Assembly (NCBI RefSeq): GCF_004010195.1
Contig: NC_057749.1
Location: forward strand, 11,038,841-11,102,840
Length of the DNA stretch: 64,000 nt
Direction: 5' to 3'
Source: Chiloscyllium plagiosum
Taxonomy: Eukaryota
Shown here: positions 1,787 through 48,990 of the stretch, piece after piece
Layout: each line of letters opens with the position of its first letter
Numbering within the stretch: position 1 is the first letter of the stretch
The notes under the pieces: generated by a model
The model's input: the letters and a program-made list of their open reading frames with translations, nothing else
Databases searched by the model: none
Told to the model about the DNA's origin: nothing
Translations under genes and position numbers: made by a program

Positions 1787-2422
1787 ACGTTTTCTCGCTA
1801 AGCTGGAAGGTTTGTTTTCAGACGTTTCGTCACCATACTAGGTAACATCATCAGTGAGTCTCCGGTGAAGCACTGGTGTTATGTCCCACTTTCTATTTAT
1901 ATATTTAGGTTTCTTTGGGTTGGTGATGTCATTTTTGTGTTGATGATGTCATTTCCTGTGTTGGTGGTGTCATTTCCGGTTCCTTTTTCTCAGAGGGTGA
2001 TAGATGGGGTCCAAATCGATGTGTTTGTTGATAGAGTTCCAGTTGGAATGCCATGCTTCTAGGAATTCTCGTGCGTGTCTCTGTTTGGCTTGTCCTAGGA
2101 TTGATGTGTTGTCCCAGTCAAAGTGGTGTCCTTCCTCATCTGTATGTAAGGATACTAGTGATAGTGGGTCATGTCTTTTTGTGGCTATTTGATGTTCATA
2201 TACCCTGGTGGCTAGTTTTCTGCCTGTTTGTCCAATGTAGTTACAGTTTGTTACAGTTCTTACAAGGTATTTTATAAATGACGTTCACCTTGCTTGTTGA
2301 TGTATAGGGTTTTTTAAGTTCATTAGCTGCTGTTTAGTGTGTTGGTGGGTTTGTGGGTTACCATGATGTCAAGAGAACTGAGTAGTTTGGTAGTCATTTC
2401 TGAGAAGTCTTTGATGTAGTTT
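1787..2422 (-). mobile_element. Penelope-like element 3' part, inserted in a CR1 fragment (about 1660-2800)
   Basis: Minus strand encodes decayed GIY-YIG-like text (KPTNTL, YKIPCKNC, REFLEAWHS) followed by a hammerhead-bearing terminal region. CR1 sequence resumes on both sides. Confidence 0.85.
1818..1857 (-). ncRNA. Minimal type I hammerhead ribozyme motif (intact core)
   Basis: UCA-CUGAUGA-U-GUUACC(uaguau)GGUGAC-GAAAC-GUC-UGA: both core boxes, a 6-bp stem II, palindromic ACGU stem III and a 3-bp stem I. Confidence 0.82.
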
Positions 2423-3046
2423 ATAAGAAGATTATAAGATTGTGAATGGTACAGATAGAGCGGAAAATATGAGGCTTTTTCCCGGGTGAAGGGGTCAATT
2501 ACTAGGAGACACAGGTTCAAGATGCAAGGGGTGGTGGTAGGGGGTGGATGTTAACAAGAGATGTGTGAGGCATGTTTTTCATACAAAGGGTTGTGAGTGC
2601 CTGGAATGCGCTGCCAGAGGTGGTAGTAGAAGCAGGCACAGCAGCAGCAATCAAGAAACACCTAGATGAATACACAAATAGGAAGGAAATAGAGGCATAC
2701 GGATCCTATAAGTGAGGATAGTTTTAGTATGGAATGGCAAAATGTGTCTGAGAAGGCTTATAGGGATGAAGAGCCTGTTTCTGTGCTATATTGTTCTTTT
2801 TTTCAATGTGCCAAGAATCTAAAGCTTTCTCCTGTTTACCATTCTTTCCAGCCATGCATTTGCCTGCCACGTTCAATAAATCTGTCTCTATTGTTCTCTG
2901 AGAGAAAATTCCAAAGATAAATACCCTCAGAGGAAAAAAATACTTCATTTCTCTATCTTAAATAGGAGACTCTTTATTCTTTAAACTGAACGCCCAGATC
3001 TAATTTCTCCAGTCAAGGAAACATGCTCAGCATCTAATTTGTCGAG

Positions 3047-3829
3047 TGTTAGAACATGGAGGAGAACCCCTCTGTTAATAAACTCACCTCGCCTCATAAT
3101 CTGTTAAAATATATGAGTGACAGAGAATTCCCAAATTCTACTACTTAAAGAAAATAATATCAATTTATACTTAACTCTAAAAATTAACATTAAACGATAA
3201 CTGTTCACAACTCTAAGCCCTCATTTTCTTTTATCTGCTTATTACTTGCCTCCAACTTTAAAACAATATACTGTTCCAACAACACTTATTAAAATTACAT
3301 CAATGTAATTTCAAAACCACATAGCCGCTGTCTTCTGCGGTGTCTGTCTTCTTCCAGCTGAAGACCTCCCTGGGTCATCTTCTTTCTTTTTACGGTGAAG
3401 ATGTTTCATATGAAAAAGGTGCCTTTGATAGACAGTGTTTCAATCTTTTGAGTTTCTCTCTCTCTTTCTCTCAATGGTAGTTACTTTCTTGATGTCTGTT
3501 ACTCTGTCTGACTTTCAAAATGCCTGCTTCTTTTTTGAATCCCCAACATGGCACATCTCATTGGTTCGATATTGGCAAAACAATAAATTCAAACTCAATT
3601 CGGTTTTAGTATCCTGAGACATAATTTAAACTGATTGGTTAAATTCGAATTGTTGTCAAAACAGCAATCAACTCAGGTATCAATTTCACAGCCAAATATT
3701 ACATATTTTCAATTTTCAGTACACTCTGAGACTGCTAGATAGTCATACGACAGGTATTTGTAAGCTCTCAGTGCAAAATGGCACTCACTCTTTTCTAAAG
3801 GCACAGTACACACCCTCAACCTCATAACA
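3047..3829 (-). mobile_element. Solo LTR
   Basis: TGTTA...TAACA termini and a degenerate 4-bp TSD (cgag/taag). Its reverse complement resembles the solo LTR at 33366-34084. It interrupts a CR1 fragment. Confidence 0.75.
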
Positions 3830-5496: not shown

Positions 5497-5755
5497 CGCC
5501 TCAGGCAACTGTCTGTGTGGAGTATGCACATTCTCCCTGTGTCTGCGTGGGTTTCCTCTGGGTGCTCCGGTTTCCTCCCACAGTCCAAAAATGTGCAGGT
5601 TAGGTGAATTGGCCATGCTAAATTGCCCGTAGTGTTAGGTGAAGGGGTAAATGTAGGGGAATGCTTATGGGTGGGTTGCTCTTTGGAGGATCGGTGTGGA
5701 CTTGTTGGGTCGAAGGGCTTGTTTCCACACTGTAAGTAATCTAATCTAATCTAAT
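5497..5755 (+). mobile_element. HE1-type V-SINE, 5'-truncated
   Basis: V-SINE core (gtctgcgtgggtttcctctgggtgctccggtttcctcccacagtccaaa) and (aatct)n tail. Confidence 0.9.
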
Positions 5756-9923: not shown

Positions 9924-10022
9924 TCTGGATCAGTGGTGCTGGAAGAGTACAGCAATTCAGGCAGCATCCGAAAAGCTTCGAAATCGACGTTTCGGGCAAA
10001 AGCCCTTCATCAGGAATAAAAG
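9924..10022 (-). mobile_element. 99-bp non-coding PLE-derived insertion carrying a hammerhead motif (9984-10015)
   Basis: 10-bp TSD cacacatgca (9914-9923 / 10023-10032). Minus strand reads CUGAUGA-A-GGGC(uuuu)GCCC-GAAAC-GUC. It is near-identical to the terminus of the coding PLE at about 39368-39465. Confidence 0.82.
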
Positions 10023-11144
10023 CACACATGCAGTCACGCAATGTAGACAGAACTTTTCCGCTACTAACAACATTGTGGGTATCATTCTGCCCCGAATACA
10101 GCAACCTTTTAAGAAGGCAACTAAACTTCTCCAGGTCAATTAGGAATGGGTAATAAGTGCTGGTCTAGGTAGCAAAACCCACAATGAACATAAGAATATT
10201 AAAAAAAATTAGTGGCTGCAGAGAGTAGCATTTAGACAATCTGTGAACAATCATGTTTTCTGGTTTTAATAATCACTTGACCAAACTAACTTTTGAGATA
10301 ATTTTCCACAGAATTATGTATTGATTTTCACGTTTGGAGGGTTGTGAAGTTTGAATGTAAGTAATATTTACACCACACAAATGCTACTAATGACCATATC
10401 AAAAAAGCAAGACTGAACAGTTTTCTGACAAGGGCATTACCATCGCTGGAACTCCCATTATCAACATCCTAGGAATTACCATTGACTAGAAACTGAAGTG
10501 AACCAGCTACATAACCAGTGGTTATGAGACTAAGTCAAAGGCTAGTAATTCTGTACCATACACAACGTACACTGCAACAACTGAGATGAATGCTCACATA
10601 CTGTTTGGAAATTTGGGCTCGAAAGTGGGCAGAACCATGTCTAGCTTAAATTTTGATTTGCATTTCTATGTGGCATACGTTAAGGAGGGAGTGATTATAG
10701 TTCTAGCTTCATTTCAGCTTTTGAGTTCTGAGAGTGTTACTGGATTGTATGAAGTTTGGTCAAACATTTTAAAATGAGGCCTTTAAAAAAATCCCTTGGT
10801 GTGAATTGTCCAGTTTTTCAGAAAACAAGAGGAGAAGAAAGAAAACTGGGCTGTAGCCTAGCAACAAGGTGTCCTTTGACAAAGGGAAACAGACATAACT
10901 AAAGTTCCTTTTGGAAAAACACACAGAAACATCAATCAATGATTCTGCAGGTTTCTTCCAGATAGAAGCAGGACATTCAGAGAGAAAAAACTCAAAAGGT
11001 CAGCTGTGCAGTATAGCAGTGAGCAAAGTAGTTAAGGCAGAAGTAAAGAAGCCCATAATAACTTAAGAGTCAGAGTCATGCAGATGTACAGTAAAGAAAC
11101 AGACTCTTCGTCCAACCCGTCCATGCCGACTAGATATCTTATAT

Positions 11145-14100
11145 TAATAATGGGGGATGGAAAGGGACAATGCAGGGAACCCCTGTGGCCATTCCCCTCA
11201 ATAACAAGTATACAGTTTTGGTTACTGTTAGAGAGCGAAATAACAGGGATAAGTCATGAGGTACAGGTCTCTGGCAGAGAGTCTGTTCCTGTTGCTCAGA
11301 AGGGAAGGGGGGGAGAGGAGCAGAGCATTAGTCATGTGGGGGACTCTATAGTTAGGAGACTGATATGAGGTTCTGTGAGAAAGAGAGAGACTCACGGTTG
11401 GTGTGTTGCACTCCCAGGTGCCAGGGTTTGTGATGTCTCGGATTGTGTTTTCGGGATCCTTGAGGGGGAGGGAAAGGGGGAGCAGCCCCAAGATGTGGTC
11501 CACATAGGCACTAAGGACATAGGTAGGAAAAGGAATGGGGATTTAAGGCAAAAATTCAGGGAGCTGGGGTGGATGCTTAGAGCGAGAACAAACAGAGCTG
11601 TTATCTCAGGTTTGTTACTCGTGCCACGTGTGAGCAAGGCAAGGAAGAGGGAGAGGGAGGAGTTGAACACGTAGCTACACAGATGGTGCAGGAGGGAGGA
11701 TTTCAGATACCTGGATAACTGGGGTTCATTTTGGGGTAGATGGGACCTCTACAAACAAAATGGACTACACCTGAACCACAGTGATACCAATATCCTGGGG
11801 GGAAATTTGCAAATGCTCTTCGGGAGGGTTTAAACTGATTTAGCAGGGAGTTGGGAAGCTAAATTGTAGTCCCAGTGCCCAGGAGGTTGACAGTAGTGAG
11901 GTCAGAAATACGGTTTCAAGGTCAGAAGAGTGCACTGACAAGCATGAAAGTGGTTTGAAGTGAGTCTACATCAAAACCCAGGAGCATCTGGAATAAGGTG
12001 GGTGAACCTGCAGAATGTGTTGCTGACTGGGACTTCGATGCTGTGGCCATTTTGGAGACATGGATAGAGCAGGACAGGAATGGTTTTAGCAGGTTCCGGG
12101 ATTTACATGTTTTAGTAAGAATAGAGAAGATGGTAAAAGCGGGGAGGTGTAGCATTGTTAGTCAAGGACAGTATTACAGTGGCAGAAAGGAGTTTTGAGG
12201 ACTCGTCTACTGAGGCAGTATGGGCTGAGGTTAGAAAGAGGAAAGGAGAGGTCACCCTGTTGGGAATTTTCTATTGGCATCCAAATAGAAAGGATAGCAA
12301 AGATGATTCTGGATAGGAGCAAAAGTAACTGAGTAGTTGTTATGGGGTACTTCACCTTTCCAAATATTGATTGGAAATACTATAGTTTGAGTCCTTTAGA
12401 TGGGTCAGTTTTTGTCCAATGTGTGCAGAAGGGTTTCCTGACACAGTATGTAGACAGGCCAACAAGGGATGAGGCCACATTGGATTTAGTATTGGGTAAT
12501 GAACCGGGCCAGATGTTACATTTGGAGATAGGTGAGTACGTTGGTGATAGTGACCACAATTTAATTACGTTTACTTTGAGGATGGAAAGGCATAGGTGTA
12601 TACCACAGGGCAAGAGTTATAGCTGGGGGAAAGGCAATTATGATGTGATTAGACAAGATTTAGGATGCACAGGATGGGGAAGGAAACTGCAGGGGGTGGG
12701 CACAATCAAAATGTGGAGCTTATTCAAGAAACAGCTACTGTGTGTCATTGATAAATATGTACCTGTCAGGCAGGGAGGAAGTGGTCGAGCAAGGGAACCG
12801 TGGTTTACTAAAGAAGTTGAATCTCATGTCAAGAGGAAGAAGAAGGTTTATATAAGGATGAGACATAAAGGTCAGTTAGGGTGCTAAAGAGTTACAAGTT
12901 AGCCAGGAAAAATCTAAAGAGACAGCTAAGAAGAGCCAGGAGGGGACATGAGAAGTCGTCAGCAGAAAGGATCAAGGTAAACCCTAAAGCTTTCTATAGA
13001 TATATCAGGAATAATAGACTGACTAGAATAAGATTAGAGCCAATCAAGGACAGTAGTGGTAAGTTGTGCGTGGAGTCCAAGGAGATATGAGAAGTGCAAA
13101 ATGAATATTTTTCATCAATATCCACACTGGAAAAAGACAATGTTGTCGAGGAGAATACTGAAAACCAGGCTACTAGACTAGATGGGATTGAGGTTCAGAA
13201 GGAGGAGGTGTTGACAACTCTGGAAAGTATACTCCACACCCACCTGATGAAGGAGCAGCGCTTGAAAGCTAGTGTTTCCAAATAAACCTGTTGAATTATA
13301 ACCTGGTGTTGTGTGATTTTTAACTGTGTACACCCCAGTCCAACGCTGGCACCTCCAGTCAGGAAAGTGTGAAAATAGATAAGTCCCATGGGCTGGATGC
13401 GATTTATCTGAGGATTCTCTGGGAAGCCAGGGAGAAGATTGCCGAGCCTTTGGCTTTGATCTTTATATCGTCATTGTGTACATGAATAGTGCCAGAAGAT
13501 TGGAGGACAGCAAATGTTGTCCCCTTGTTCAAGAAGGACAGTAGAGACAACCCTGGTAATTATAGACCAGTGAGCCTTATTTCGGTTGTGGGTACAGTGT
13601 TAGAAATAGTTATAAGAGATAGGATTTATAATCATCTAGAATGGAATAATTTGTTTAGGCATAGTCAATGCAGTTTTGTGAAGGGTAGGTCATGTCTCAC
13701 AAACCTTATTGAGCTCTTTGAGAAGGTGATGAAACAGGTGGATGAGGGTAAAGCGGTTGATGCAGTGTATATGGATTTCAGTAAGACATTTGATACGTTT
13801 CCCCATAGCAGGCTATTCCACAAAATATAGAGGGTGATTTAGAGGTTTGGATCAGAAATTGGCTCGCTGAAAGAAGACAGAGAGTGGTGGTTGATGGGAA
13901 ATGCTAATCATGAGGGCGTAGAAGGATGGATTAGTAAATTTGCAGATGACACTACAGTTGGTGGAGTTGTGGATAGTGCCAAAGGATGTTGCAGGCTACA
14001 GAGGGATATAGATGAGCTGCAGAGCTGGGCTGAGAGGCAAATGGAGTTTAATGCAGAAAAGTGTGAGGTGATTCATTTTGTATTCCTGTTGCTCCTCCCA

Positions 14101-14834: not shown

Positions 14835-17595
14835 AACTCGTCCGATTTGCCAGCACTTGGTCCATATTCTCTAAGCCTTCATATTCATACACCCATCCAG
14901 ATGCCTTTTCAATGTTGGAATTGTACCAGCCTCCACCACTTCCTCTGGCAGTTCATTCCATCCACTGCGGAAAAAAGTTGCCTCTTAGGTCTGTTTTAAA
15001 TCTTTCTCCTCTCATCTTAAACCTGCTCCCACTAGTTCTGGACTCCCCCACCCCAGGGAAAGACCTTGTCTATTTACCTTATCCATGGCCCTCATGATTT
15101 TATAAACCTCTATAAGGTCACCCCCTCAGCCTCCGATGCTCCAGGGAAAACAGCCCCAGCCTATTCAGCCTCTCCTTGTAGCTGAAATCCTCCAACCCTG
15201 GCAAAATCCTTGTAAATCTTTTCTGAACCATTTCAAGTTTCACAACATCCTTCTGATAGGAGGGAGACCAGAATTGAAAACAGTATTCCAAAAGTGGCCT
15301 AACCAATGTCCTGTAAGCTGCAACATGACCTCCCAACTCTTATACTCACACTGATCAATAAAGGAAACCATATCAAACACTTTCTTCACTATCACATCTA
15401 TTTGCAACCCCACTTTCAAGGAACAATGAACCTTCACTCCAAGGTCTCTTCATTCAGCAACACTCCCTAGGGCCTTACCATTATGTGTGTAAGTGCTGCC
15501 CTGATTTGTCTTTTCAAAATGCAGCACCTCATATTTATCTAAATTAAACTCCATCTATCACTCCTCAGCCCATTGGCCCACCTGATCAAGATCCTATTGT
15601 AATCTGAGGTAAACTTCTTTGCTCTCCACTACACCTCCAATTTTTGGAGTCATCTGAAAACTTACTAACTATACCTCCTATGTTCATATCCAAATCATTT
15701 ATATAAATGATGAAAAGCAGTGGACCCTGTACCAATCCTCATTGCACACCACTGGTCACAGGTCTCCAGTTGAAAAAACAACCCTCCACCACCATCCTCT
15801 GTCTTCTACCTTGAGCCAGTTCTGTGTCCAAATGGCTAGTTCTCTCTGTATTCCATGTGATCTAACCCTGCTAAGCAGTCTACCATGAGAAATCTTGTCA
15901 AACGACTTGCTGAAGTCCATATAAATCATGTCTATTGCTCTGTCTTCATCAATCCTCTTCGTTACTACTTTAAAAAACTCAATCAAGTTAGTGAGACATG
16001 GTTTTGCACGCACAAAGCCATGTTAACTATCACTAATTAGTCTTTGCCTTTCCAAATACATGTAAATCCTGTCCCTCAGCATTCCTTTCGACAACTTGCC
16101 CACCACCAATATCAGGCTCACCAGCCTAGAGTTGCCTGGTTTTCCCTTACCATCTTTCTTAAATAGTGGCACCACGTTAGCCAACCTCCAGTCTTCCAGC
16201 ACCTTACCTGTGACTATCAATAATTCAAATATCTTAGCAAGGGGCTCAGCAATCACTTCTCTAGCTTCCCATAGAGTTCTAGGGTATACCTGATCAGGTC
16301 CTGGGTATTTATCCACTTCTATGCGTTTCAAGACATCCAGCACATCCTCCTGTGTAATGTGAGCATTTTTCAAAATGTCACCATCTATTTCTCCTCATTC
16401 TATAACTTCTATGTCCTTTTCCACAGTAAATACTGATTTAGTATCTCCCCCATTTTCTGCGGCTCCACACGCAGGCTGCCTTGCTGATCATTTAGGGGTC
16501 CTATTCTATCTCTAATTCCCCTTCTATCTTGGGCGGCACAGTGGCACAGTGGTTAGCACTGCTGCTTCACACCGCCAGAGACCTGGGTTCCCACCTCAGG
16601 TAACTGTCTGTTTGCACATTCTCCCTGTGTCTGCGTGGGTTTCCTCCGGGTGCTCCGGTTTCCTCCCACAGTCCAAAAATGTGCAGGTTAGGTGATGATA
16701 CAAATATCTCAGCAAGGGGCCCAGCAATCACTTCCCTAGTAACCCACAGAGTTCTAGGGTGCATCAGATCAGGTCCTGAGGATTTATCCACCGTTATGTA
16801 TTTTAAGACATCCAGCACCTCCTCCTCTGTAATATGGACATTTTTTTCAAGATGTCACCATCTATTTCCCTACATTTTATACCTTCCATGTCCTTCTCCA
16901 CAGTAAGCACTGATGCAAAATATTTGTTTAGTATCTCCCCTATCACCTGCGCTTCCACACACAGACTACTTTGCTGATGTTTGAGACCCTATTCTTTCCC
17001 TTGTTACCCCTTTGTCCTTAAGGTATTTATAAAATCCCTTTGGATTCTCCTTAACTCTATTTGACAAAGCAATCACATGTCCCCTTTTTACCCTCCTGGT
17101 TTCCCTCTTAAGTATACTCCCTACTGCCTTTATACTCTTTTAAGGATACACTCGATCATTGCTGTCTATACCTGACATATGGTTCCTTCTTTTTCTTAAG
17201 CAAAACCTCAATTTCCCTAGTCATCCAACATTCACTATACCTACCATCCTTATCTTTCATCCTAACAGGAATATACTGTCTCTGAACTCTCATTATCTAA
17301 TTTTTGAAAGCTTCCCATTTTCCAGCCATTCCTTTATCTGTGAATATCTGCCCCCAATCAATGTCTGAAAGTTTTTGCCTAATACCATCAAAACTGGCCT
17401 TCCTCCAATTTAGAACTTTAACTTTTAGATCTGCTCTATCCTTCTCCAAGACTATTTTAAAACTAATAGAATTGAGTCATTGGCCCCAAAGTGCTCCCCA
17501 ACTGACACACCTCAGTTACCTGCCTTGCCTTTTTTCCCAAGAGCAGGTCAAGTTTTGCACCTTCTCTAGTAGGCACACCCATGTACTGAATCAGA
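14835..17595 (-). mobile_element. CR1 LINE ORF2 (two overlapping copies), tail-to-tail with the preceding CR1
   Basis: Minus-strand ORF fragments (PGPDQVYPRTL, DWRLANVVPLFKK, YMDFSKSFD, LVRPLLEYC). Segment ~16220-16530 recurs in diverged form at ~16697-17020. Confidence 0.9.
16531..16694 (+). mobile_element. HE1-type V-SINE, 3'-truncated
   Basis: gggcggcacagtggcacagtggttagcactgctgc head and V core; no tail. Confidence 0.88.
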
Positions 17596-17596
17596 A

Positions 17597-17945
17597 AGTA
17601 GAACATTATTTCAATGAGCCACCACACACTGCAGCACAGAGGAACTACGAAGAGCAGAGGAAAATCACCTACCCAGTGTACTCAAAAAGAACGGGTTCCC
17701 AATTAACACAGTCGCCGATTTCTGAGCAACAAACCCAAATAAGCAGGTAAAGCATGTCCAGAAACCCTAGCCACTCTCCCCTACATCAAAGACATCTCGG
17801 AAATGACTGCCAGACTAGTCCGACCCCTTGGCATCATGGTAGCCCACATCACACTAAAACGGCAGCAAATGAATTTGAAACACCCTATACAGACAAGCAA
17901 AATTAATGCCATTTACAAAATACCTTGCAAGAACTGTAACAGACA
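17597..17945 (+). mobile_element. Penelope-like element internal fragment
   Basis: LPYIKDISEMTARL and YKIPCKNC motifs, as in the other PLE copies in the window. Confidence 0.8.
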
Positions 17946-18656
17946 GTTCATCCATGCCTGGTATCAGCTCAGTGAGCCTTCTCTGGAATGCCTCCAATGC
18001 CAGTATATTAATTCTTTAGATAAGGTGCCCAAAGCTTTTCACAGTATTCCAGCTGTGGACTGACTAGCACCTTGTACAGTTTTAGCAAAACTTCCATTCT
18101 TTTATATTCCACTCCTTTGGAAATAAAAGCATGCATTCCATTGCCTTCCCTATTGCCCACTGAACTTGAACGCTAGTTTTTTGTGATTCATGGATGAGGA
18201 CTCCCAAATCCCTTTATAGTATTCTGAATTCTTTCTCCATTTAAAAACAGTAAGCTCCTCTATTCTTCTTGCCAAAATGCATTACCTCAAATTTTCCTAC
18301 ACTATATTCCATCTACTAAGTTTTTGCCCACTGCTTAACATGACAATATCCCTCTGCAGAACATGTATCGTCCTCAGGATTTGCCTACTCAGCTATTTTT
18401 GTATCATCCACAAATGTGGCTACAGCACATTCACTTTCCTCATCCAATATTGTAAATAATGTTGTCACTGTACTGATCCCTGTGGCACTCTATTAGTTAC
18501 GGATAGCCACGCAATTTTTGAGAAGATTTCTATTGAATTATGGAATGGCGATTGAGTTAAATTTAGATAAATGTGAGGTGTTGCATTTTGATAACATAAT
18601 CCAGGGTAGAACTTAGTAGGGTTCTGGGGAGCATTGTTGAGAGACCTAGGGATGCA

Positions 18657-19682: not shown

Positions 19683-19769
19683 CAGGTAGCTATGCTGAAA
19701 ATGCTTCCTTAAGCCAACTATTTTCTATTAATTAGCTAATGACCACTCAGCAGCTCTCTGGAGACAGAA

Positions 19770-31935: not shown

Positions 31936-32195
31936 TTAAAAATCACCCAACATCAGGTTATAGTCCAACAGGTTTAATTGGAAGCACACTAGCTTCCGGA
32001 GTGACGCTCCTTCATCAGGTGATTGTGGAAGGCTTGATCGTAACACAGAATTTACGATCGAGCCCTCCACAATCACCTGATGAAGGAGCATCACTCCGGA
32101 AGCTAGTGTGCTTCCAATTAAACCTGTTGGACTATAACCTGGTGTTGCGTGATTTTTAACTTTGTATGCCCCAGTCCAACACCGGCATCTCCAAA
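31936..32195. mobile_element. 260-bp fold-back PLE derivative (109-bp arms, 8-nt loop)
   Basis: Arms at 31935-32043 / 32052-32160. TSD tcataaagatgagg at 31922-31935 / 32196-32209. Each arm has a hammerhead motif with GAAA changed to GGAA. Confidence 0.88.
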
Positions 32196-32697
32196 TCATA
32201 AAGATGAGGACATGGTGAATGTCAGGTCTCGGGAGGGGTATGTCGATATTCGAGGGCATGTTGATACAAAAAAGGTGTTAGGTATGTTGAAAAGCATTAA
32301 GGTAGAAAAGTCCCGAATTGATGGGTTCTATCCTAGAATACTAAGGAAAGTAAGGCAGGAAGTTTCTGGGGCCTTGTATGAAATCTTTGTATTCTCTTTA
32401 TAGGCGAGGTTCTAGAGGACTGAAGAATAGCCAATATTGTTCCTTTGTTTAAGAAGGGCACCAGGGATAATTCAGGAAATTACAGGTTGGTGAGCCTTAT
32501 GACAGTGGCAGGGAAATATTGGAGAAGATTCTTAGGGACAGGATTTACCAAAATTTATAAAAACATAGACTTAGTAGTGATAAGAAGCATGACCTTGTGT
32601 GGGGGAAGTCATATCTTACAAACTTAATTAGTTTTTTAAGGAAGTGACAATGATTGTTGAGGGCAGTAGATGTTGTCTGCATGGACTTTAGTAAGGC

Positions 32698-33255
32698 GTT
32701 GTGGTTCTGTTCGCCGAGCTGGGAATTTGTGTTGCAGACGTTTCGTCCCCTGTCTAGGTAACATCCTCAGTGCTTGGGAGCCTCCTGTGAAGCGCTTCTG
32801 TGATCTTTCCTCCGGCACTTGTAGTTGTTTGAATCTGCCGCTTCCGGTTGTCAGTTCCAGCTGTCCGCTGCAGTGGCTAGTATATTGGGTCCAGGTCGAT
32901 GTACTTGTTGAGTGAATTAGTGGATGATTACTATTATAGGACAAGCCAAACAGAGAACAGCCAGGGAATTCCTAGAGGCATGGCACTCATCCACTGATTC
33001 AATCAACAAGCACATCGACCTGGACCCAATATACCGACCACTGCAACGGACAGCTGGAACTGACAACCGGAAGCGGCAGATTCAAACCACTACAAATGCC
33101 GGAGGAAAGATCACAGAAGTGCTTCACAGGAGGCTCCCAAGCACCGAGGGTGTCACCTAGACAGGGGACGAAACGGCTGCAACACAAATTCCCAGCTCGG
33201 TGAACAGAACCACAACAACGAGCACCCAAGCTACAAATCTTCGCACAAACTTTGA
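32698..33255. mobile_element. 558-bp fold-back PLE derivative (~230-bp arms) inserted in the CR1 MDFSKAFD codons
   Basis: 13-bp TSD actttagtaaggc (32685-32697 / 33256-33268). Arms at 32698-32927 / 32987-33216. Encodes a REFLEAWHS endonuclease tail. Confidence 0.9.
32734..32773 (-). ncRNA. Minimal type I hammerhead ribozyme motif (intact core)
   Basis: GCA-CUGAGGA-U-GUUACC(uagaca)GGGGAC-GAAAC-GUC-UGC, with one mismatch in stem II. The mirror copy at 33141-33180 has three core substitutions. Confidence 0.8.
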
Positions 33256-34084: not shown

Positions 34085-34964
34085 CATAGAAAACAGAGAT
34101 TAGCGGTGGCAAGATATTTTCTGACTGAGGTTTTGTGTTCTGCAGAGTTCAATGCTGGGACCCCTCTTTGTAATGTATTTATATAAATGATCTAGAGGAC
34201 AATGCGGGTGAACTGATTATAAGTTTAAAGCCAACATAAAGATTGGGGGAGCTGCAGATAGTGGAAAGGATTGACAGGATATAGCAGAATAGACTAGAGA
34301 CTTGGGCAGAGAAATGGCAGGTGGAATTTAATCCAGACAAATGTAAGGTGATGCATTTTGGAGTACCTAATGCAGTAAACGGCAGAACTTGTAGAAGTAT
34401 TAATATACAGAGAGACTTAGGCTTACATGTCCACAGATACCTGGAAGTGGCAACACAAGTTGCTAAGGGGGTCACAAAGGCGAATGACATGCTTGCCTTC
34501 GTTGGTCAGGGCATAGAGTACAAAAATAGACAAGTCACGTTCAGAATTCTGTATCAAATTTTGATTGCCACACTACCAGAACAATGTGGAAGTTTTGGAG
34601 ACAGTACAGAAATTGTTTACCAGGAATGTTGCCTGGTTTGGTGGGTATTAGCTATGAGGAGAGATCGGACAAACTTGGCTTGTCTTTACTTGAATGTCAG
34701 AGACTGAGGGCAACCTGATAGAATTTCACAAAATTATGAGAGGCAAAGATAGAATGGATAGTCAGAGTCCTTTTTTCCCCAAGGGTAGAAATGTCAATTA
34801 CGAGGGCACATAGGTTTAAGGTGAAAGGGCGAACATTTAAAGCAGATATGAGAAGCAAGATTTTTTATACAGTGGTGGTAGGTGTCTGGAATCTGCCGCG
34901 AGAGGAGGTGGTAGAAGCAGATACAATAGAAATGTTTAGTAACTATCTTGACAGAGTAGACAAG

Positions 34965-36422
34965 GAATACAAAAGAGAAAGTGCTAGAAAAGCTAAAAGG
35001 TCTTAAAATTGATAAATCTCCTGACCCTGATGGGTTACATTCTAGAGTTCTGAGGGAGGTGGCTGAGGAAATAGCGGAGGCGTTGGTTGAGATCTTTCAA
35101 AAGTCACTGGAGTCCGGGAAAGTCCCAGATGATTGGAAGATCACTGTTGTAACCCCCTTGTTCAAGAAAGGATCAAGGCAAAAGATGGAAAATTATAGGC
35201 CAATTAGTCTAACCTCGGTTGTTGGTAAAATTCTAGAATCCATCATTAAGGATGAGGTTGCTAAATTCTTGGAAGAGCAGGGTCGGATTAGAACAAGTCA
35301 ACATGGATTTAGTAAGGGGAGGTCGGCCTGACAAGCCTGTTGAAGTTCTTTGAAGAGGTGACAAGTAGGTTAGACCGGGGAAACCCAGTGGATGTGGTCT
35401 ACCTAGACTTCCAAAAGGCCTTTGATAAGGTGCCACATGGGAGGCTGCTGAGCAAGGTGAGGGCCCATGGTGTTCAAGGTGAGCTACTGTTATGGATAGA
35501 GGATTGGCTGTCTGACAGGATGCAGAGAGTTGGGATAAAAGGTTCTTTTTCAGAATGGCAGCTGGTGACAAGCAGTGTCCCGCAGAGTTCAATGTTGGGG
35601 CCGCAGCTGTTCACATTATATATTAATGATCTGGATGTAGGGACTGGGGGCATTCTAGCTAAGTTTGCCGACGATACAAAGTTAGGTGGACAGGCAGGTA
35701 GTACTGAGGAAGTGGGGAGGCTGCAGAAGGATCTAGACAGTTTGGAGGAGTGGTCCAGGAAATGGTTGATGGAATTCAATGTGAGCAAATGCGAGGTCTT
35801 GCACTTTGGGAAAAAGAATAGAAGCATGGATTACTTTCTAAACGGTGTGAAAATTCATAAAGCCAAAGTACAGAGGGATCTGGGAGTGCCAGTTGAGGAT
35901 TCTCTAAAGGTAANNNNNNNNNNNNNNNNNNNNNNNNNNNNNNNNNNNNNNNNNNNNNNNNNNNNNNNNNNNNNNNNNNNNNNNNNNNNNNNNNNNNNNN
36001 NNNNNNNNNNNNNNNNNNNNNNNNNNNNNNNNNNNNNNNNNNNNNNNNNNNNNNNNNNNNNNNNNNNNNNNNNNNNNNNNNNNNNNNNNNNNNNNNNNNN
36101 NNNNNNNNNNNNNNNNNNNNNNNNNNNNNNNNNNNNNNNNNNNNNNNNNNNNNNNNNNNNNNNNNNNNNNNCATTTCTTCAGCCAGAGAGTGGTGGGCCT
36201 GTGGAATTCAATGCCACAGAGTGCAGTGGAGGCTGGGACGCTAAATGTCTTCAAGGCAGAAATTGATAAATTCTTGATGTCACAAGGAATTACGGGCAAC
36301 GGGGAGAATGCGGGTAAGTGGTGTTGAAATGCCCATCAGCCATGATTGAATGGTGGAGTGGACTCGATGGGCCGAATGGCCTTACTTCCACTCCTAAATC
36401 TTATGGCCTTATGGTCTTATGG
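34965..36422 (+). mobile_element. Younger 5'-truncated CR1 RT segment (contains assembly gap 35914-36171)
   Basis: Long open RT frames (NYRPISLTSVVGK, YLDFQKAFDKV, FADD) and a (cttatgg)n tail. Confidence 0.93.
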
Positions 36423-37975: not shown

Positions 37976-39332
37976 ATTTGCTTCATTTACCTTCTTTGGT
38001 AGCAAGTTCAGTTTCCTAATTACTTTCTGAGGAAGAAACTTCCCTTTATTTTCTTATCAGATTTAGTAGTAATTATCTTCTGTTGATGGACCTTTGTTTG
38101 AATTTTCCCCACACGTGCCAACGTTTTCATCGTATCTCTCCTGTCTAACTTAGTTGAAACAGTAAAGACCTTATCAAGTCATTCCAAACTTTTAATGTCT
38201 TAGTTCTAGAACTAGTCTTGACAATCTTTCTGACACATTTCTAAAAGATGACATCAAATTTTGCAAGAAGAATGTAAAATTCCTCAGTAAAAATGGTTTT
38301 AAAATGCAAAAGGAAATAAATCCATAATATTTTGTTTAACTGGTAAGCCAGGAAATATTTTCTTTTCATTTTTAATGGTTTCCTTCATCATCATTAGAAG
38401 TCAATGAAAAAGATCCTTCAAAGGTCTCATTCCAATCTTTCCCTATATTTGCAACAACAATGTAGAAGTAATTTAATAGAATGGTTTTCCCAGTAAGATA
38501 ATATACACTTACCAAGATACTATAAGTTTCACTATCATTGCATTCCTCCCCAGTGGCCTCAGGGTGTGATTCAAAACCTAAACTTTCAAGGGCTGCACAA
38601 CTATTCAGCAGACAACAGCAACACGCATTCATATAAGCACCAAAGAACCATAATCAGACAGATAGTGACACTGAAACAAGGGAACAAATGAGGAATGCTT
38701 GAAAAGCTTGGCAGAAGTAAATTTTGAGGAAAGCCTCGAAAGCAGGAAAGGGTGTTCAGTCTGAGAGATTATGAAACAATCCAAGTTATTCTGAAAGATC
38801 CACCACCTGCTGCAAAACATTCCCACTTTCAGTAGGAGCAGAGAATCCATTCTTATAAAAAGTATAATAAATAAAGCAAACAAGCACAATGAAACTTGCA
38901 AAGAAATTTAAGGCTTGTGTAACAAAGTATTTGAACTCGGTACATGATAAATTGAAATCATACAACTTGAAACACCAGTTATAACAAAGTTGCCAAGCTA
39001 CTTTCTCCACCAGAATAGGAAATCTAATTAAAGGAATGCCTGAGATAAGTTAAAATTCTGGACTGGTAACTCCATGTTGGCTAAACTTGTATCAGCTTGA
39101 TAAATAGCTACACCATCAATTGAAACAGAGTGCTGCAATGAAAAAGCACTGGCAAGACATTATTCGACAGGAGATGTCTCGGTGAAACTTAAAGCATGGT
39201 TGAATGGTGCAATGATCCTGAAGAGGATACCTGCCTGCTTATCCATCTATTTTCCAAGTTAAAATTGCAAAGGCTGTATAGGTGCTTCAAGATTTTCATT
39301 GCAGCGATAACATGGCAGACTGTATCACACTC

Positions 39333-40337
39333 AGGTAAAAACAATGACTGTAGATGCTGGAAACCAGATTCTGGAATATGGTGCTGGAAGAGCACATCAG
39401 TTCAGGCAGCATCCAAGGAGCAGTGAAATCGACGTTTCGGGCAAAAGGCCTTCATCAGGAATAAAGGCAGTGAGCCTGAAGCGTGGAGAGATAAGCTAGA
39501 GGAGGGTGGGGGTNNNNNNNNNNNNNNNNNNNNNNNNNNNNNNNNNNNNNNNNNNNNNNNNNNNNNNNNNNNNNNNNNNNNNNNNNNNNNNNNNNNNNNN
39601 NNNNNNNNNNNNNNNNNNNNNNNNNNNNNNNNNNNNNNNNNNNNNNNNNNNNNNNNNNNNNNNNNNNNNNNNNNNNNNNNNNNNNNNNNNNNNNNNNNNN
39701 NNNNNNNNNNNNNNNNNNNNNNNNNNNNNNNNNNNNNNNNNNNNNNNNNNNNNNNNNNNNNNNNNNNNNNNNNNNNNNNNNNNNNNNNNNNNNNNNNNNN
39801 NNNNNNNNNNNNNNNNNNNNNNNNNNNNNNNNNNNNNNNNNNNNNNNNNNNNNNNNNNNNNNNNNNNNNNNNNNNNNNNNNNNNNNNGGTGCCAGGATGG
39901 GAGGGTGGGTTGTAGGGGGTCGTGGACCTGACCAGGTTGTCACGAAGTGAACGGTCTTTGCGGAAGGCGGAAAGGTGTGGGGAGGGAAATATATCCCTGG
40001 TGGTGGTGGGGTCTGTTTGGAGGTGGTGGAAATGTCGGCGGATGATTTGGTTTATGCGAAGGTTGGTAGGGTGGAAGGTGAGCACCAGGAGCGTTCTGTC
40101 CTTGTTATGGTTGGAGGGGTGGGGTCTGAGGGCGGAGGTGCGGGATGTGGACGAGATGCATTGGAGGGCATCTTTAACCACGTGGGAAGGGAAATTGCGG
40201 TCTCTAAAGAAGGAGGCCATCTGATGTGTTCTGTGGTAGAACTGGTCCTCTTGGGAGCAGATACGGCGGAGGCGGAGGAATTGGTAATACGGGATGGCAT
40301 TTTTGCAAGAGGTAGGGTGGGAAGAGGTGTAATCCAT
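39333..40337 (-). mobile_element. Penelope-like element, RT C-terminus/linker plus 3' terminus with hammerhead at 39429-39460 (gap 39514-39887)
   Basis: DYTSSHP...NAIPYYQFLRLRRICS...LVLTFHP...AFRKDRSLRDNLVRS, then CUGAUGA-A-GGCC(uuuu)GCCC-GAAAC-GUC. Confidence 0.88.
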
Positions 40338-40371
40338 CCATTTTGTGGAGGTGCCAGAGTTGAACTGGGAT

Positions 40372-40525
40372 GGATAAGGTCAGAAGTCACATGACACCAA
40401 GTTGTAGTCCAACAGGTTTATTTGAAATCACAATTTGAATTTTCATCTGATGAAGGAACAGCACTCTGATTTCAAATAAATCTGGTGGACTATAACCTGG
40501 TGCCATGTGACTTCTGACCTTGTCC
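40372..40525. mobile_element. Short fold-back PLE derivative with partly deleted hammerhead
   Basis: Arms of ~57 bp (ggataaggtcagaagtcacatg...gaaatca / tgatttc...gaccttgtcc) around ctgatgaaggaacagcactc. Confidence 0.7.
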
Positions 40526-41886: not shown

Positions 41887-41997
41887 ACAACCAAAGATAA
41901 TGTATGAAAATTTCATACTCTTAATAAAGAGCGCTGGCAAATGTAATCCATGATTCCTTTATGTTCAGTATTTTAGGAAAACCAAAAGTAAATTTAC

Positions 41998-42141
41998 CAC
42001 AGATTCAATGCGATTCCGTCTGAGATTTAGTTCTGTCAGTGAATCAAGACCACTCATGTTTTCAACATGAACGATGAAATTACCCGCAAGGTTAAGCACT
42101 CGAAGTTCAGTTAAATGATTGATATTTTCCATCCTACAGAT
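41998..42141 (-). CDS. LRRC49: LRRC49 internal coding exon (144 nt), ICRMENINHLTELRVLNLAGNFIVHVENMSGLDSLTELNLRRNRIESV
   Basis: Minus strand reads tctttgtctttgtttacag|ATC...GTG|gtaaat. It has 48 codons with no stop, two LRR units and phase 0-0, and resembles recalled LRRC49 (ITKIENINHLCELRVLNLARNFLSHVDNLNGLDSLTELNLRHNQITFV). Confidence 0.95.
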
Positions 42142-42422
42142 CTGTAAACAAAGACAAAGACAATCTTAATATTAACACTGATTTTTACATTTTGCAAAAA
42201 TATTTAAAACTGAAAGTAAAATGCTTGCTTTTCCACAGAAAGAAAAATGTGAAACATTATAAAAGAAACCAGAACCATTGGTGCATTGCCAATCTGAAAA
42301 TGTAAAAAAACTGAACATGAAAACAATCACAAGAGTTGGTTTTTCAATCCCGTATCTTATTTCAAAACTGATCAGATTACTCAACGTGCTATGAATTCAT
42401 GTTCATTAATTCAGGTCTAACT

Positions 42423-43913: not shown

Positions 43914-45714
43914 CTGTAGTACAACAGAAACAAATTTAGAAATCATTTTCCAGGGAAAATTGAGAAAATACAAACTCCACACATTTCCATTAGACACAAT
44001 TATAGAGAATTTTACAGCTTTCTACCCCTCTTCGGCTGAAGCACTGATTCTTATTGGTGTTCGGTCCTTGTTGCTAGTTACCCTTTAGCGTCAACCTTAT
44101 ATGCCAATGCAGTGAAAACAATTTGCATCATTGACAGATCAGCTAAGAAACTCCAGGAGATTCTGAACAGTTCAGAATGGAGAAAAAAAGCAACTCAAGT
44201 TGTCCAAGCTACAACAGAACCAGAAATACACCCAGCAAGGTAACTCACCAGATAGACAAGTTCAACGTGGAGTAATAGCACAATTTACTACATTAAAGGC
44301 AGTAAATAAAACATACAGTAACTGTTATTCACTGCTTCCCTGAAGCCTAAGAAGCTGACAGTTTTTGACTTTATCGCAAGATAGTCTAAGCAAAGAGCAA
44401 TCACTACATCATATATTAACTACCCTGAAATATGAAACTGGATATAGGAAGGTAGAACTTTACAGAAGATCACAAAGATGGGCATCAGATAGAGTGGTAG
44501 ATAGAGATAGAAATTGTGACTGAAGTGCTCGTTTAAGAAGGACTCCACTTCAAAGGATACTGGCACTAGTGCTGAGACAGGAAGAAACTGTACCTAATGG
44601 ATGTTCTCCTGAACTAGGATAGGAACCATTTCCCAGCAAAAAAGATGAAAGGATAGTGGCATTGGTTTTAAATTAATATGTAGGAATTAACAGGAAACAT
44701 CAGCATTCTAACTTAACAAATGACGATTATGCCAATTTTGAACTCTGCCTCTAAAGTGAATCAAGGCAGAATCATTGAATATTTTTCGACATAAGTGCAC
44801 AGATTCTTGTTGTGCAGGGAATCAAAGGTTATTGGAGTAAATGGGATGTGGAATTCAAAACACAAACAAATCAGCCATGATCTTATCAAACTGCGGAACT
44901 GGTTTGAAGGGTCGAATGACCTACTTCTGATCCTAACTCATGTAGGATTTATTTGCTGACAACAACAGTTCAAACAATCCAACAACTGTACACATGCACA
45001 CACCTGTGTAGTACTGTGCAGATTTTCAAAAATTAAAATTCCATTTTAATTTAAACTTCATTTAATTACTCTTAGATGTCACTTCAGTCATCTTTCGGTA
45101 TTTAATACTTTCAAAAAGTATAGTTATGAGAGGTATCACTGCTGGTATGTATGCCCCTGGGTGTCAGCAAGGGGAACCATTCACATTTATGCAAATTAAT
45201 AAAGGAAATTAATGGTGGGATAAAAATTTTCAATAGCAGTGAGCAGTATTCTTAACAAAACTGGGGTGCTGAATACAACCACGTTTTGGGAGGAACCACA
45301 TATAGAGGGAAGCAGTGGCAATGTCACTGGACCAGTAATCCAGAGGACATGGGTTCAAATCCCACCATGGAGCTACTAATATCTGAATTCAATTAATATA
45401 TCTGCAATTCAAAGCTTGTCCAAATGATGATCATGAAACTAGTAAAATACTATATGGTTTATTAACGCCTTTAGGCCAAGCTTACCTGGTCTGGTCTACA
45501 CATATCTCCAGACTCACAGCAATGTGATTGACTATTACATCCTTTGAAATGGCCCAGCAGTCCACTCAGTTGAACTGAACTACTACAAAGTCTAAGAAAA
45601 GGCATGAAGCTGAATGGACCATCCAGCATCAACCTAAGCAGCGAAAGCAATAACAGTAAAATTAGCCCTGTCAAACTTGCAAAGCCCTCCTCACTAACAC
45701 CTGGGAGGTTGTAC

Positions 45715-46378
45715 AATCTCTTAAGGTAAACTTGCAGGTTGAGCTAGTAGTTAGGAAGGCAAATCCAATGTTGCCATTCATCTCAAGAGGACTAGAATAT
45801 AAAAGCAAGGATATACTTTTGAGGCTTTATAAGGCTCTGGTGAGACCACATTTAGAGTATAGTCAGCAATTTTGGGACCCATACCTCAGGAAAGACAACT
45901 GGCTGTGGAGCAGGTCTAGAGGGGTTCACAAGAATGACCCCAGAAATGAAAAGGCTTAACATATGAGGAATGTTTGAAGACTCTGGGACTATACTCGATG
46001 GAGTTTGGAAGGATCACAGAATACTGAATGGCCTTGCCAGAGTGGACATTGGGAAGGTGTTTCCATTGGCAGGAGAGATGAGGACCAGAGGGCACAGCCT
46101 TAGGGTAAAGGGAAGACCCTTTAGAATGGAGATAAGGAGAAACTTCTTTAGCCAGAGAGTGGTAAATCTGTGGAATTCATTTCCACAGAAGGTTATGGAG
46201 GCCAGGTCATTGAGTATATTTAAAATGGAGATAGATAAGTTCTTGACTGCCAAGGAGATCAAAGGTTACAGGGAGAAAGTGGGAAAATGGGGTTGAGAAA
46301 CCTATCAGCCATGACTGAATGGCAGAGCAGACTCGATGGGCCGAATGGCCTAATTTCTGCTCCTATGCCATATGGTCT
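45715..46378 (+). mobile_element. CR1 3' fragment
   Basis: LVRPHLEYSQQFW, RTRGHSLRV and RRNFFSQRVVNLWNS. Confidence 0.9.
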
Positions 46379-46379
46379 A

Positions 46380-48990
46380 AGTTGGGAGAGCCACCCGATA
46401 AACTTGTCAAGCAACAGCATGGCATAGCCATATTCATGGAAACATACCCTACAGGCACCACAGTGTTTTGCCCCACTAGCAAGCCAAGCTTACCAGAATT
46501 GGTGGAACAGTGTTATCCATTCATGAGGTAGTTGCATTGGGAATCCTCAACATTGACTCCAGACCTCATGAAGTCTAGAAACCTCCTGCTGATTTCACAC
46601 TTATAGTACCCATACAATTGTAATCCTCCGCGTTGAATACTAATTGTAAGAAACACAAAGGGTGGCAATGAAAGGGAATAAAGTCCCCAGCCAGGGTACA
46701 ATGTCTATCAGTAGTGAGGTTTCAGCAGCACCACTATTGGCTAAACTGTTCAAGTCCTAAAGGATACAGGCTGCTCGACTGGATCTTTAGCAGCTGGAGA
46801 AGGAACCAACAAGAGGGAGAAACGTACATGATGTGTCCTCACAAATCTAACTGTCAGAGAAGCATCTGTCCGTGACAATATCGGCAGGTCTGAACACCAA
46901 ACAGTTCTTGTAGAGACAAATTCCATTCTTCACATTGAGGATATCTTCAGTGTCATGTGGTACTGTCATCATGCTAAATGCAATGGGTTTTGCTCTAGCA
47001 ACTCAAAACGGAGCAACCACGAGGCACTATGGGCCATCAGCAGCAGCAGCAGAATTGCATCTCAATCATAATCTGCAATTGCAGGGCCCACTACCATTTC
47101 CATTCTAATGTTACAAACAAGCCAGGTGGAATGACTCTGGTTCAATGAAGAGTGCAAGAAGTAGCAGCACTAAAAGCAACACCGGATTACTTATAGAGTG
47201 ATAGAGTCATACAGTATGGAAACAGACCCTTCAAAACGCTAGACTGGGCAAGCGATTCTGTAACAACAGATTATATATAAGGTTTGTAGCCTTGCTGCAA
47301 AATTTTATGAATGGTGGCGGACAATTAAACAACAAACTGGAAAAGAAGACACAACAAATATCTCCATCCTGGAAGATGAGGAGCCCAAAACTTCAATAAG
47401 AAGACAAGGCTGAAACATACGCATCCATCGTCAGTCAGATGTGCCAAAGGGATGATCCAGATCAGCCTCTATTGAGGTCCCGATCATCACAGAAACCAGA
47501 TTTCAGTCAATTTAATTCACTCCATATAATATCAGAAAGGGCATGAAGGCACTGGACAAAGGCAAGGCAACTGACTCTCACAACAATCCTACGACTGTAC
47601 TGAAGACTTGATTCCAAAACTAACCATGCCCATGTCAAGCTGTTCCATTACAGAAACAACATTGACATCTACCCAAAAACATGGAAATTTGTTGGGGTGA
47701 GTCCTGTTCACAAAAAGAGGGACAAATCCAAATCAGCCAATTGTCATCCGATCAGTCTACCCTCCATCATCAGCAAAGTGATGGAAGTGCCAATTGGTGA
47801 TGCTCAGTTTGGTTTCTTCTCAGGGCCATGTAGCTTCTGATCTCATTCCAGCCTTGGGCCAAACATTGAAAAAAGAGCAGTACATCAGATATGAAATGAG
47901 AGTGACTGCCCTCAACAAGGCAGCATTAGACTGAGTGAAGTATCAAGGAGCCCTAACAGAACTGGAATTAATGAGAATCCAAGGAAAAGCTCTGCACTTG
48001 CACAAGAATCATGCCTAGAATAAAGTAAGCTAGGCAATCATCTCAGTCTCAGGACATCTCTACAGGAGCTTCTCAGGGGGAGTGAGCTAGGCCCATCTAC
48101 TTTCAGCTGCTTCATCAATGACCTTCCAACATCATAACGTCAGAAGTGGAGATGTTTGCTGATGACTGCACAATATTCAACATCATTTGTGACTCGGAGA
48201 AAATGAGGACTGCAGAAGCTGGAGATCAGAGTTGAAGAGTATGCTGCTGGAAAAGCACAGGCGGTCACGCAGCATCCAATGAACGGGAGAATCGATATTT
48301 CGAGCATAAGCCCATCATCAGGAATTTCATGCTCCCTGACTGGCTGTGCTTTTCCAGCATGAAGGGCTTATGCTTGTCGATTCTCCTGCTCCTTGGATGC
48401 TGCCTGACCTGCTGTGCTTTTCCAACACCACACTCTTCAACCATTCATGACTCCTCAAACACTCAAGCAGACAATTCTCAAATACAACAGAACTGAACAA
48501 TATCAAAGTCTGGACTGACAAACGACAAATACCTTGCATGGCACACAAGGGCCAAGCAATGATCACTGTTTTGCTGGAAAACACAACATCTGCAGTCCTC
48601 ACTTTCCCCAAGCAATGATCACCTTTAACAAGAGAGCATCTAATCATTGCCCCTTGACATTCAACAACAACGGAATCCCCCATCAAAATTCTCATGATTA
48701 CTATTGCCCAGACACTGAAGTGGAAAAAAACACAAATACTGTAGCTACAAGAGCAGGTCAGAAGCTAGGAATTCTGCAGTGTGAGACTCAACTCCTGCCT
48801 CCCAAAGCCTGTATGCCACTGTCAAGGCATAAAGCAGGACTGAAATGGAATACTCTCCATTTTTATGAACAAATGAAGATCTAACAATACTCAAGGAGTT
48901 TGAAATAATTCAGAGCAAAGCAGCTTGCTTGATTGACACCTAATGCACCACAACGAGCGTCCCCTTCATCAATAGTGAACAGTTTCAGAG
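46380..48990 (+). mobile_element. Decayed LINE ORF2 of the second lineage, with small nested insertions
   Basis: APE and RT remnants (PISLPSIISKVME, FADD-like gtttgctgatgac at ~48155). Homologous to the reverse complement of 59430-61830. Confidence 0.7.
48196..48441. mobile_element. Fold-back PLE derivative with hammerhead variant at 48292-48323 (-)
   Basis: Inverted gctggaaaagcacag / ctgtgcttttcca arms. Motif reads CUGAUGA-U-GGGC(uuau)GCUC-GAAAU-AUC. Confidence 0.72.

Follow-up and report, generated by a model that had tools for sequence, protein, structure and literature searches.

Hammerhead Motifs of Penelope-like Elements

Minimal type I hammerhead ribozymes (min-HHRs) were described by Cervera & De la Pena in 2014 from Penelope-like elements (PLEs) of Metazoa, where they lie in the terminal repeats (PMC4209133). 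The present analysis concerns motifs of this kind in a stretch of 64,000 nucleotides from the shark Chiloscyllium plagiosum (contig NC_057749.1, positions 11,038,841 to 11,102,840; hereafter the window), where they lie in introns of the gene LRRC49. According to PMC4209133, the metazoan motifs are of type I without a helix III hairpin and have a palindrome at positions 15.2-16.2, a bulge separating A9 from G10.1 and a pair G10.1-C11.1; a genome has several consensus families, mostly as single motifs in truncated elements, and opposite-strand pairs lie 100-700 bp apart. The shark motifs are alike in all these respects. They differ in their host, the vertebrates named in that account being fishes, coelacanth, Xenopus, turtle and snakes; in copy number, which is higher in the shark than the values given for the coelacanth (~4,000) and Xenopus tropicalis (~9,000); and in helix length, since contiguous helix I is 2-3 bp in the shark and stem II of families B and C (defined below) 4-5 bp, as opposed to a published helix I of 4-5 bp and a stem II of 7-8 bp.

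The second system for comparison is the Poseidon element PAc of Anolis carolinensis (Frangieh et al. 2024, PMC11167929), in which the hammerhead is reported to overlap the start of the open reading frame (ORF), as it appears to do in shark family A, with the cut site 26 bp downstream in PAc and 28 nt in family A. PAc insertions, too, stop downstream of the hammerhead at either of two sites, which are about 30-40 nt from each other. The sequences of PAc and of the shark elements are unrelated, however, and family A is known from partial ORFs. As to the general architecture of PLEs set out by Craig et al. 2021 (PMC8557442), the shark elements have in common with it the 5′ truncation, the partial tandems termed pseudo-LTRs (pLTRs), the inverted 5′-truncated copy at the 5′ end and the 30-40 bp tail, and with non-autonomous PLEs a 3′ end common to the autonomous forms and head-to-tail insertion. 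The Naiad and Chlamys clades, presented as new in the same source, are without canonical hammerheads, whereas the shark elements have hammerheads, like Penelope/Poseidon, Neptune as well as Nematis.

The motifs are members of the class in print since 2014; their host in the present case is a shark, and their copy number is high. The explanation preferred, to which a probability of about 0.88 is given, is that they are the min-HHRs of the PLE terminal repeat region and that the window copies are dead-on-arrival relics in LRRC49 introns, each a 5′-truncated piece of a tail or a pair inverted head to head; the identity of the motif as a PLE min-HHR is, taken by itself, near certain. Dimeric PLE hammerheads have reportedly been studied by Lunse and colleagues.

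Motifs in the Window and in the Genome

Both strands of the window were searched with the pattern CTGANGA, N6-30, GAAA, NN, TH (H = non-G), which gave eight matches. Seven of these are the sites listed in a first-pass annotation made from the letters alone, all of which were recovered, each with complete core boxes in type I order. Family A is represented by 1821-1854(-), and a family A-like subfamily by 32737-32770(-), which has an A.G mismatch in stem II. Family B comprises 9986-10013(-) and 39431-39458(-), the latter with one stem II mismatch (GGCC/GCCC), and an older B-like subfamily accounts for 48294-48321(-), with AUAU in the place of stem III. Family C comprises 13244-13271(+), where stem II is weakened (GCUU for GCUCC), and 30913-30941(+), with AGCU and a CUA triplet. 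The annotation had further claimed that stem II pairs in each family; this holds for all three family cores, but only four of the seven window copies are fully paired, as 13244, 32737 and 39431 have one mismatch or shortening each. Its six damaged copies are also present, with altered boxes: 18722-18773(-) (family A; CUGAUAC, GAAG), 19598-19652(+) (family A; AAAA for GAAA), 31986-32029(-) and 32065-32119(+) (both family C; GGAA for GAAA), 33141-33180(+) (A-like subfamily; CCGAGGG, GGC) and about 40444-40470 (family C; 3′ core lost). A seventh, badly decayed family A copy at about 58220-58253(-) had not been listed.

The eighth match, 49010-49042(+), with AGUU and a stem II of just 1 bp, seems fortuitous. 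In 300 first-order Markov shuffles of the window, used as the chance control, the mean was 1.45 matches (maximum 5), 0.30 of them palindromic (maximum 3), as against 8 and 7 observed; the excess is made of repeat copies, not of seven independent events.

Genome-wide counts bear out the claim of at least three families, each a repeat family with its own stem II, and of a dense ribozyme load. The 28-nt core of family B (stem II GGGC/GCCC) occurs exactly 18,175 times in the 3.56-Gb genome, the 29-nt core of family C (GGAGC/GCUCC, AGCU, CUA triplet) occurs exactly 979 times, and the 34-nt core of family A (GUUACC/GGUGAC) is found at 4,395 places with at most two mismatches; the reverse-read control gave 0 for each. 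The shark genome therefore holds tens of thousands of minimal hammerhead motifs, which are missed by protein-based annotation and by Rfam.

Family A and Its Coding Element

Family A lies about 330 nt downstream of the GIY-YIG motif in an ORF that also has a reverse transcriptase (RT) domain, and it represents the terminal region of an autonomous PLE. The ORF upstream of the hammerhead carries the motif VIYKIPCKDCNKHYIGQTGRKLATRIHEH, and at 11 of the 30 loci fetched with a piece of this ORF a pattern-complete hammerhead is present on the same strand, 296-346 nt downstream of RIHEH; many other loci of the 30 have CpG-decayed versions of it. YVDD and the GIY-YIG motif stand in a single 341-aa frame in one copy, and another matches RVT_1 with 32.8 bits (Pfam cut-off 29.6). 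The nearest Atlas clusters to the ORF are animal GIY-YIG/HTH_animal/RVT_1 proteins (score 0.95), and the ORF piece gave 73,776 first-look candidates genome-wide. ATG codons are located within the CUGAUGA box/stem II junction, 28 nt upstream of the cut site, and at locus L065 the reading frame is open through the hammerhead.

Family B, a Non-coding Unit with a Coding Relative

Family B is linked to a relative that encodes GIY-YIG, the RT domain having been seen for family A. At locus L007 an ORF piece matches GIY-YIG with 25.5 bits (Pfam cut-off 22.6), is 50% identical to the motif of family A, and is followed by sequence 88.7% identical to positions 181-355 of the B unit. The C-terminus of the same ORF was found just upstream of B-type hammerheads at loci L005, L008 and L065. 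Family B thus shares its 3′ part with a GIY-YIG-encoding element. The "open frames" of more than 1,000 aa in the search tables were discarded, as they are runs of N and not intact genes; at loci L002, L008, L066 and L079 such runs border or take the place of element interiors.

The non-coding B unit is about 481 nt long, and the frame from its hammerhead ATG closes after 17 codons. A longer element has the same first 169 nt at its head, and we infer that the unit derives from it by internal deletion. Thirteen of the 14 long copies share one junction, at which the B 3′ end with its tail is followed, 3-4 bases on, by unit position 1; the preceding unit is variably 5′-truncated, and two copies include the preceding hammerhead. 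In one B concatemer (locus L068, G000:C30:45581361-45581580) a deletion that starts within CUGA and stops two bases beyond the cut site has taken out the hammerhead, with the flanks joined cleanly.

This arrangement recalls the non-LTR retrozymes of animals (PMC7229834; Li, Clavereau & Pollet 2026, preprint 10.64898/2026.07.22.740005), which, as described, are likewise short non-coding hammerhead units arranged head to tail, akin to PLE termini and present in a cartilaginous fish. Family B could be a retrozyme, whose multimeric transcripts would be cut by the minimal hammerhead to monomers of about 481 nt, circularised and copied by a rolling circle by the RT of a PLE into head-to-tail concatemers. 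In favour of this possibility are the constant junction between the 3′ end and position 1, the presence of more than one unit in the 13 long copies and the absence of a long ORF. The preprint, moreover, puts non-LTR retrozymes forward as non-autonomous PLE derivatives and gives a mean consensus of 363 bp in the single cartilaginous fish that it sampled, and multicopy head-to-tail insertions are reported for non-autonomous PLEs (PMC8557442). However, partial tandems are presented in the latter source as normal in any PLE, so that circular RNA is unnecessary; the successive hammerheads number at most two in any copy seen, and most copies are solo, of 100-180 nt. The RNA of the unit is not unusually stable compared with shuffles (z = -0.21), which leaves a rod-like RNA unsupported, and the 5′ ends of copies are not heaped where cleavage would fall, at +30 from the hammerhead start (1 of 39). 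The retrozymes described in PMC7229834 have canonical type I hammerheads with helix III, whereas that of family B is minimal. The retrozyme origin is therefore tentative, and it refines the PLE explanation for family B instead of replacing it.

A related proposal, held slightly more doubtful, is that family B is a vertebrate retrozyme-like element built on a minimal, dimer-dependent hammerhead, that is, an internally deleted PLE of about 481 nt copied from multimeric or circular RNA, with the very many solo copies of 100-130 nt as run-off cDNAs rather than haphazard truncations. Such cDNAs would span the distance from the RT start (+90 or +127) to the 5′ end of the RNA a few bases upstream of the hammerhead, and a snap-back at that 5′ end would produce head-to-head pairs.

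Insertion Signature of the Three Families

Family C is non-coding where seen, and the CUA triplet ends the frame of its hammerhead ATG. Upstream of the hammerhead, at least one copy extends for 532 nt, and the family is very often found as head-to-head inverted pairs with the joint about 10 nt upstream of the hammerhead.

Copies of all three families share sequence round the core; their 5′ starts vary, they stop on the 3′ side at either of two positions 30-40 nt apart, and in each family the hammerhead has a fixed position, approximately 75-125 nt before the 3′ end. Counted from the hammerhead start, as are all end positions in this article, the 3′ ends fall at +74 to +81 and +107 to +111 in family A, at about +90 to +97 and +125 to +127 in family B, and at +83 to +88 and +115 to +121 in family C. 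Among the hallmarks described for PLE insertions are strong truncation at the 5′ end and a 30-40 bp "tail" that may or may not be present (PMC8557442), and in PAc the tail has been traced to two internal reverse-transcription start sites (PMC11167929). The three families all bear this signature, namely 5′ truncation, head-to-head inverted pairs and the optional tail of 30-40 nt. The PLE attribution made in the first-pass annotation is therefore upheld on three grounds: the RT/GIY-YIG ORF upstream of family A, the 3′ region that family B has in common with a GIY-YIG element, and the insertion signature of A, B and C. Taken together, the findings offer a worked example of an autonomous PLE, a non-coding derivative and fragments tied by common 3′ ends.

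From published work on PLEs, a mechanism can be proposed for the source elements. The hammerhead would act on multimeric or read-through transcripts, two copies pairing through their palindromic ANNU to form helix III, and each RNA would be cut after its GUC or CUA triplet. The reverse transcriptase of the element would then begin copying downstream of the hammerhead, at either of two internal sites, which would result in two alternative 3′ ends and in the presence of the motif in every tail fragment.

In a 279-kb sample, which is small and was picked through exact cores, the 5′ ends of short copies bunch just upstream of the hammerhead, at -5 to +1 in 9 of 39 family B copies and at -14 to +4 in 20 of 44 family C copies. 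This bunching could be the mark of an RNA 5′ end or of a snap-back point. DNA contigs also show loose ends and joints where the 5′ ends of short copies bunch (L004:1532-1533).

Hammerhead Anatomy and Covariation

No helix III hairpin is present in the motifs; its place is taken by the palindromic A15.1-N-N-U16.1, which is ACGU in families A and B and AGCU in family C. The stem III 4-mer had been described as always self-complementary, and all seven intact sites have a palindromic ANNU. Besides this palindrome, two more features that the pattern does not demand were found, one unpaired base between A9 and G10.1 in all seven copies and a G10.1-C11.1 pair in six, with G.U in 13244. The bulged base, the G10.1-C11.1 pair and the palindrome match the traits listed for the min-HHRs of PLEs in PMC4209133, which supports the assignment of the window motifs to that type. 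Contiguous helix I measures 3 bp in families A and C and 2 bp in family B.

Covariation was analysed in 44 family A copies, where the three inner pairs of helix I are 95% paired and a possible outer helix 86% paired. Overall, 87.6% of the cells are paired, versus no more than 55% after sliding of the 3′ partners, and 12 cells are changed on both sides, versus 5.6 +/- 1.8 in shuffles. These two-sided changes probably represent one or two events, and kinship inflates such scores; the sole two-sided covariation found is at one helix I pair (U-A 32, C-G 9, G-C 1), which splits the family into two subfamilies. The covariation check proposed in the first-pass annotation was thus carried out for family A, with this one pair as its yield.

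The same annotation had argued for selection on structure. The retention of the bulge, the G10.1-C11.1 pair and the palindrome, and the helix I covariation in family A, speak for it, but conservation among the window copies says little about selection because these are dead, truncated relics, and AUAU is a product of decay. The exact AUAU core is unique in the genome, and 12 more cores lie within one mismatch. Since these neighbors include ACAU and AUGU, AUAU is explained by CpG decay of ACGU on both strands in one copy, and it was rejected both as a fourth family and as a self-complementary variant under selection.

Evidence Weighed against the PLE Reading, and the Question of Cleavage

Rfam hammerhead families are canonical type I/III models, whose catalytic core boxes are like those of the window motifs. 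The check by these models, suggested in the first-pass annotation, failed to detect the motifs: the window gave no hammerhead at the gathering score, and the six matches obtained at E<=10 included none either. The miss is presumably due to the lack of helix III and the very short helix I. Because minimal hammerheads are not reported by Rfam, ribozyme censuses based on it undercount.

This null result is one of several points that count against the PLE min-HHR explanation. On the coding side, the GIY-YIG match of family A reaches 18.2 bits, under the Pfam cut-off of 22.6; the RT of the long B-related element was not among the sequence seen; and family C had no ORF beside it by tblastn with the ORF pieces of A and B, nor was its parent found. 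On the structural side, free-energy folding favors a competing hairpin in which part of the CUGAUGA box is paired with the ACGUC end, and the helix I of 2-3 bp is under the 4-5 bp of the Schistosoma min-HHRs and near the 2 bp of D. virilis, as published in PMC4209133. Cofolding of two copies did not form the double hammerhead, in output that lacked a marked strand break and is unreliable.

Transcripts were sought in about 13 million poly(A) single-cell reads under the same species label, with a 3-kb locus that contains B and C copies as the target. It collected 3,382 reads, which stem from many copies because they are mostly 90-95% alike, and family B has coverage on both strands. A pile-up of molecule begins or ends was not reported in these poly(A) single-cell reads, a type of library poorly suited to show cleavage. 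In addition, the published PLE min-HHRs cleave poorly in vitro (PMC4209133), and for PAc ribozyme mutants are stated to leave in vitro insertion unaffected and no RNA-seq reads to end at the cut site (PMC11167929). As the published activity is low and, for in vitro insertion of PAc, dispensable, the chance that the hammerheads have a cleavage role in vivo may be put at about even. As for the window copies, they most likely do nothing, because stem II is weakened in three of the seven, contiguous helix I is of 2-3 bp and none has a tandem partner.

The indifference of PAc insertion to ribozyme mutations also lends some weight to the idea that the hammerhead-like sequence was kept for a role other than cleavage, as a translation start region, a structure bound by the RT or a promoter-proximal element. 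The family A ATGs lie inside the CUGAUGA box in a frame that is open through the motif, the PAc ORF likewise starts at stem II (PMC11167929), and the bunching of short-copy 5′ ends near the motif in families B and C would fit an RNA 5′ end there. Against it, core boxes, bulged base and palindrome are all retained in B and C, which are non-coding and have no ORF starting there, and a helix I pair of family A is changed on both sides. PAc RNA is, furthermore, reported to be cleaved in a manner dependent on C3/G8 (PMC11167929), and efficient hammerheads are reported in PLEs of fungi, plants and protists (PMC4209133). A non-cleavage role is thus unlikely, more so than either proposal for family B.

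Relation to the Host Gene LRRC49

The intron setting claimed in the first-pass annotation was confirmed by mapping one shark LRRC49 protein, which placed minus-strand exons at 43933-43844, 42144-41998 and 7633-7565. The 34-kb intron between the second and third of these exons holds five of the seven intact motifs; the other two lie beyond the outer mapped exons, where the next exons were not found. The ORF at 41968-42165(-) passes LRR_8, and the LRRC49 proteins of several sharks share 96-100% identity with it over 49 residues.

Of the seven intact motifs, five run in the sense of LRRC49, and one could imagine that the host has taken the copies over to act on its pre-mRNA, for instance as intronic ribozymes or as polyadenylation sites that tune expression. 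Family C copies carry an ATTAAA at about +57 (L004:413-415, a minus-strand copy), with equivalents in the window copies 13227-13357 and 30617-31040, and 393 + 284 reads with poly(T) loose ends, summed over genomic copies, place the poly(A) about 17 nt past it; within genes, C copies in sense orientation could therefore cut transcripts short. All three window C copies, solo or long, whose signal region is readable are, however, antisense to LRRC49, and the motifs belong, as unexceptional members, to families of thousands of copies, CpG-decayed and in three cases with a weakened stem II. Host takeover is on these grounds very improbable, and LRRC49 biology is unchanged as far as the evidence goes.

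Finally, chance agreement with a short descriptor would suit 49010-49042 and the roughly 1.45 matches expected per window, but as an explanation of the motifs it is already refuted by the seven palindromic matches against 0.30 expected, the core counts of 18,175 and 979 (exact) and 4,395 (two mismatches at most) against reverse-read controls of 0, and the fixed position of the motif within the repeat families.

Inventory of Repeats in the Window

About 18 pieces of families A, B and C were identified in the window, including six head-to-head pairs. The 3′ fragment of a family A PLE at 1781-2419(-) contains the C-terminal part of the GIY-YIG ORF (tblastn 2418-1868) and the hammerhead, and ends 73 nt past the hammerhead start, at the short 3′ end. 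A further family A ORF fragment, at 17604-17941(+) (tblastn 17576-17952), stops short of the hammerhead. Family A also forms a head-to-head pair at 18659-19136(-) and 19215-19702(+), with a damaged hammerhead in each arm and ORF matches by tblastn at 19155-18833(-) and 19215-19531(+). A second pair, absent from the first-pass annotation, lies at 58142-58389(-) and 58569-59343(+), with ORF fragments found by tblastn at 58446-58234(-) and 58420-59339(+); its plus arm stops 22 nt before the hammerhead. The A-like subfamily is present as a head-to-head pair at 32698-33251, with a core-intact hammerhead in the minus arm, a damaged one in the plus arm and an ORF match by tblastn at 32930-33064(+).

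The two family B copies are both sense to LRRC49. The solo fragment 9924-10024(-) extends from -11 to +89 and has the short 3′ end, while 39332-39511(-) extends from -54 to +127, with the tail, and abuts a run of N at 39514-39887, so that it may extend further 5′; another N run in the window is at 35914-36171. The older B-like subfamily, about 77% identical to family B, forms a head-to-head pair at 48200-48431, in which the minus arm carries the AUAU hammerhead and the plus arm starts inside the hammerhead.

Family C is represented by the solo fragment 13227-13357(+) (-17 to +116), the longer copy 30617-31040(+) (-296 to +127, with the tail), and two head-to-head pairs. In the first, 31935-32054(-) and 32052-32198(+), the GGAA-for-GAAA change is common to both arms; the second, at 40346-40523, is decayed and has lost the 3′ half of the hammerhead. 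The best of the Rfam matches in the window, to MIR5070 at 40383-40514 (48 bits, gathering score 100, E = 3e-6), is below threshold, and the microRNA precursor was rejected as merely a hairpin of two inverted family C tails.

Pfam searches of the 365 window ORFs gave, as relevant matches, one LRR exon and transposon fragments. The latter include LINE fragments (Exo_endo_phos_2, RVT_1) at 12333-13830, 21948-22334, 23278-23580, 25175-25447 and 34960-35331, and the family C insertion 13227-13357 interrupts the LINE copy at 12.3-13.9 kb. Fragments of an LTR-type retrotransposon are located at 54683-56921(-), with matches to RT_RNaseH (74 bits), RVT_1 (43.7 bits) and, below the cut-off, an integrase core (25.6 bits). 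Lastly, two 15-nt T-arm-like hairpins, at 27286-27300(-) and 45350-45364(+), were matched by the 3′ end of the tmRNA model (E = 0.31 and 4.3) and may be remnants of tRNA-derived SINEs.

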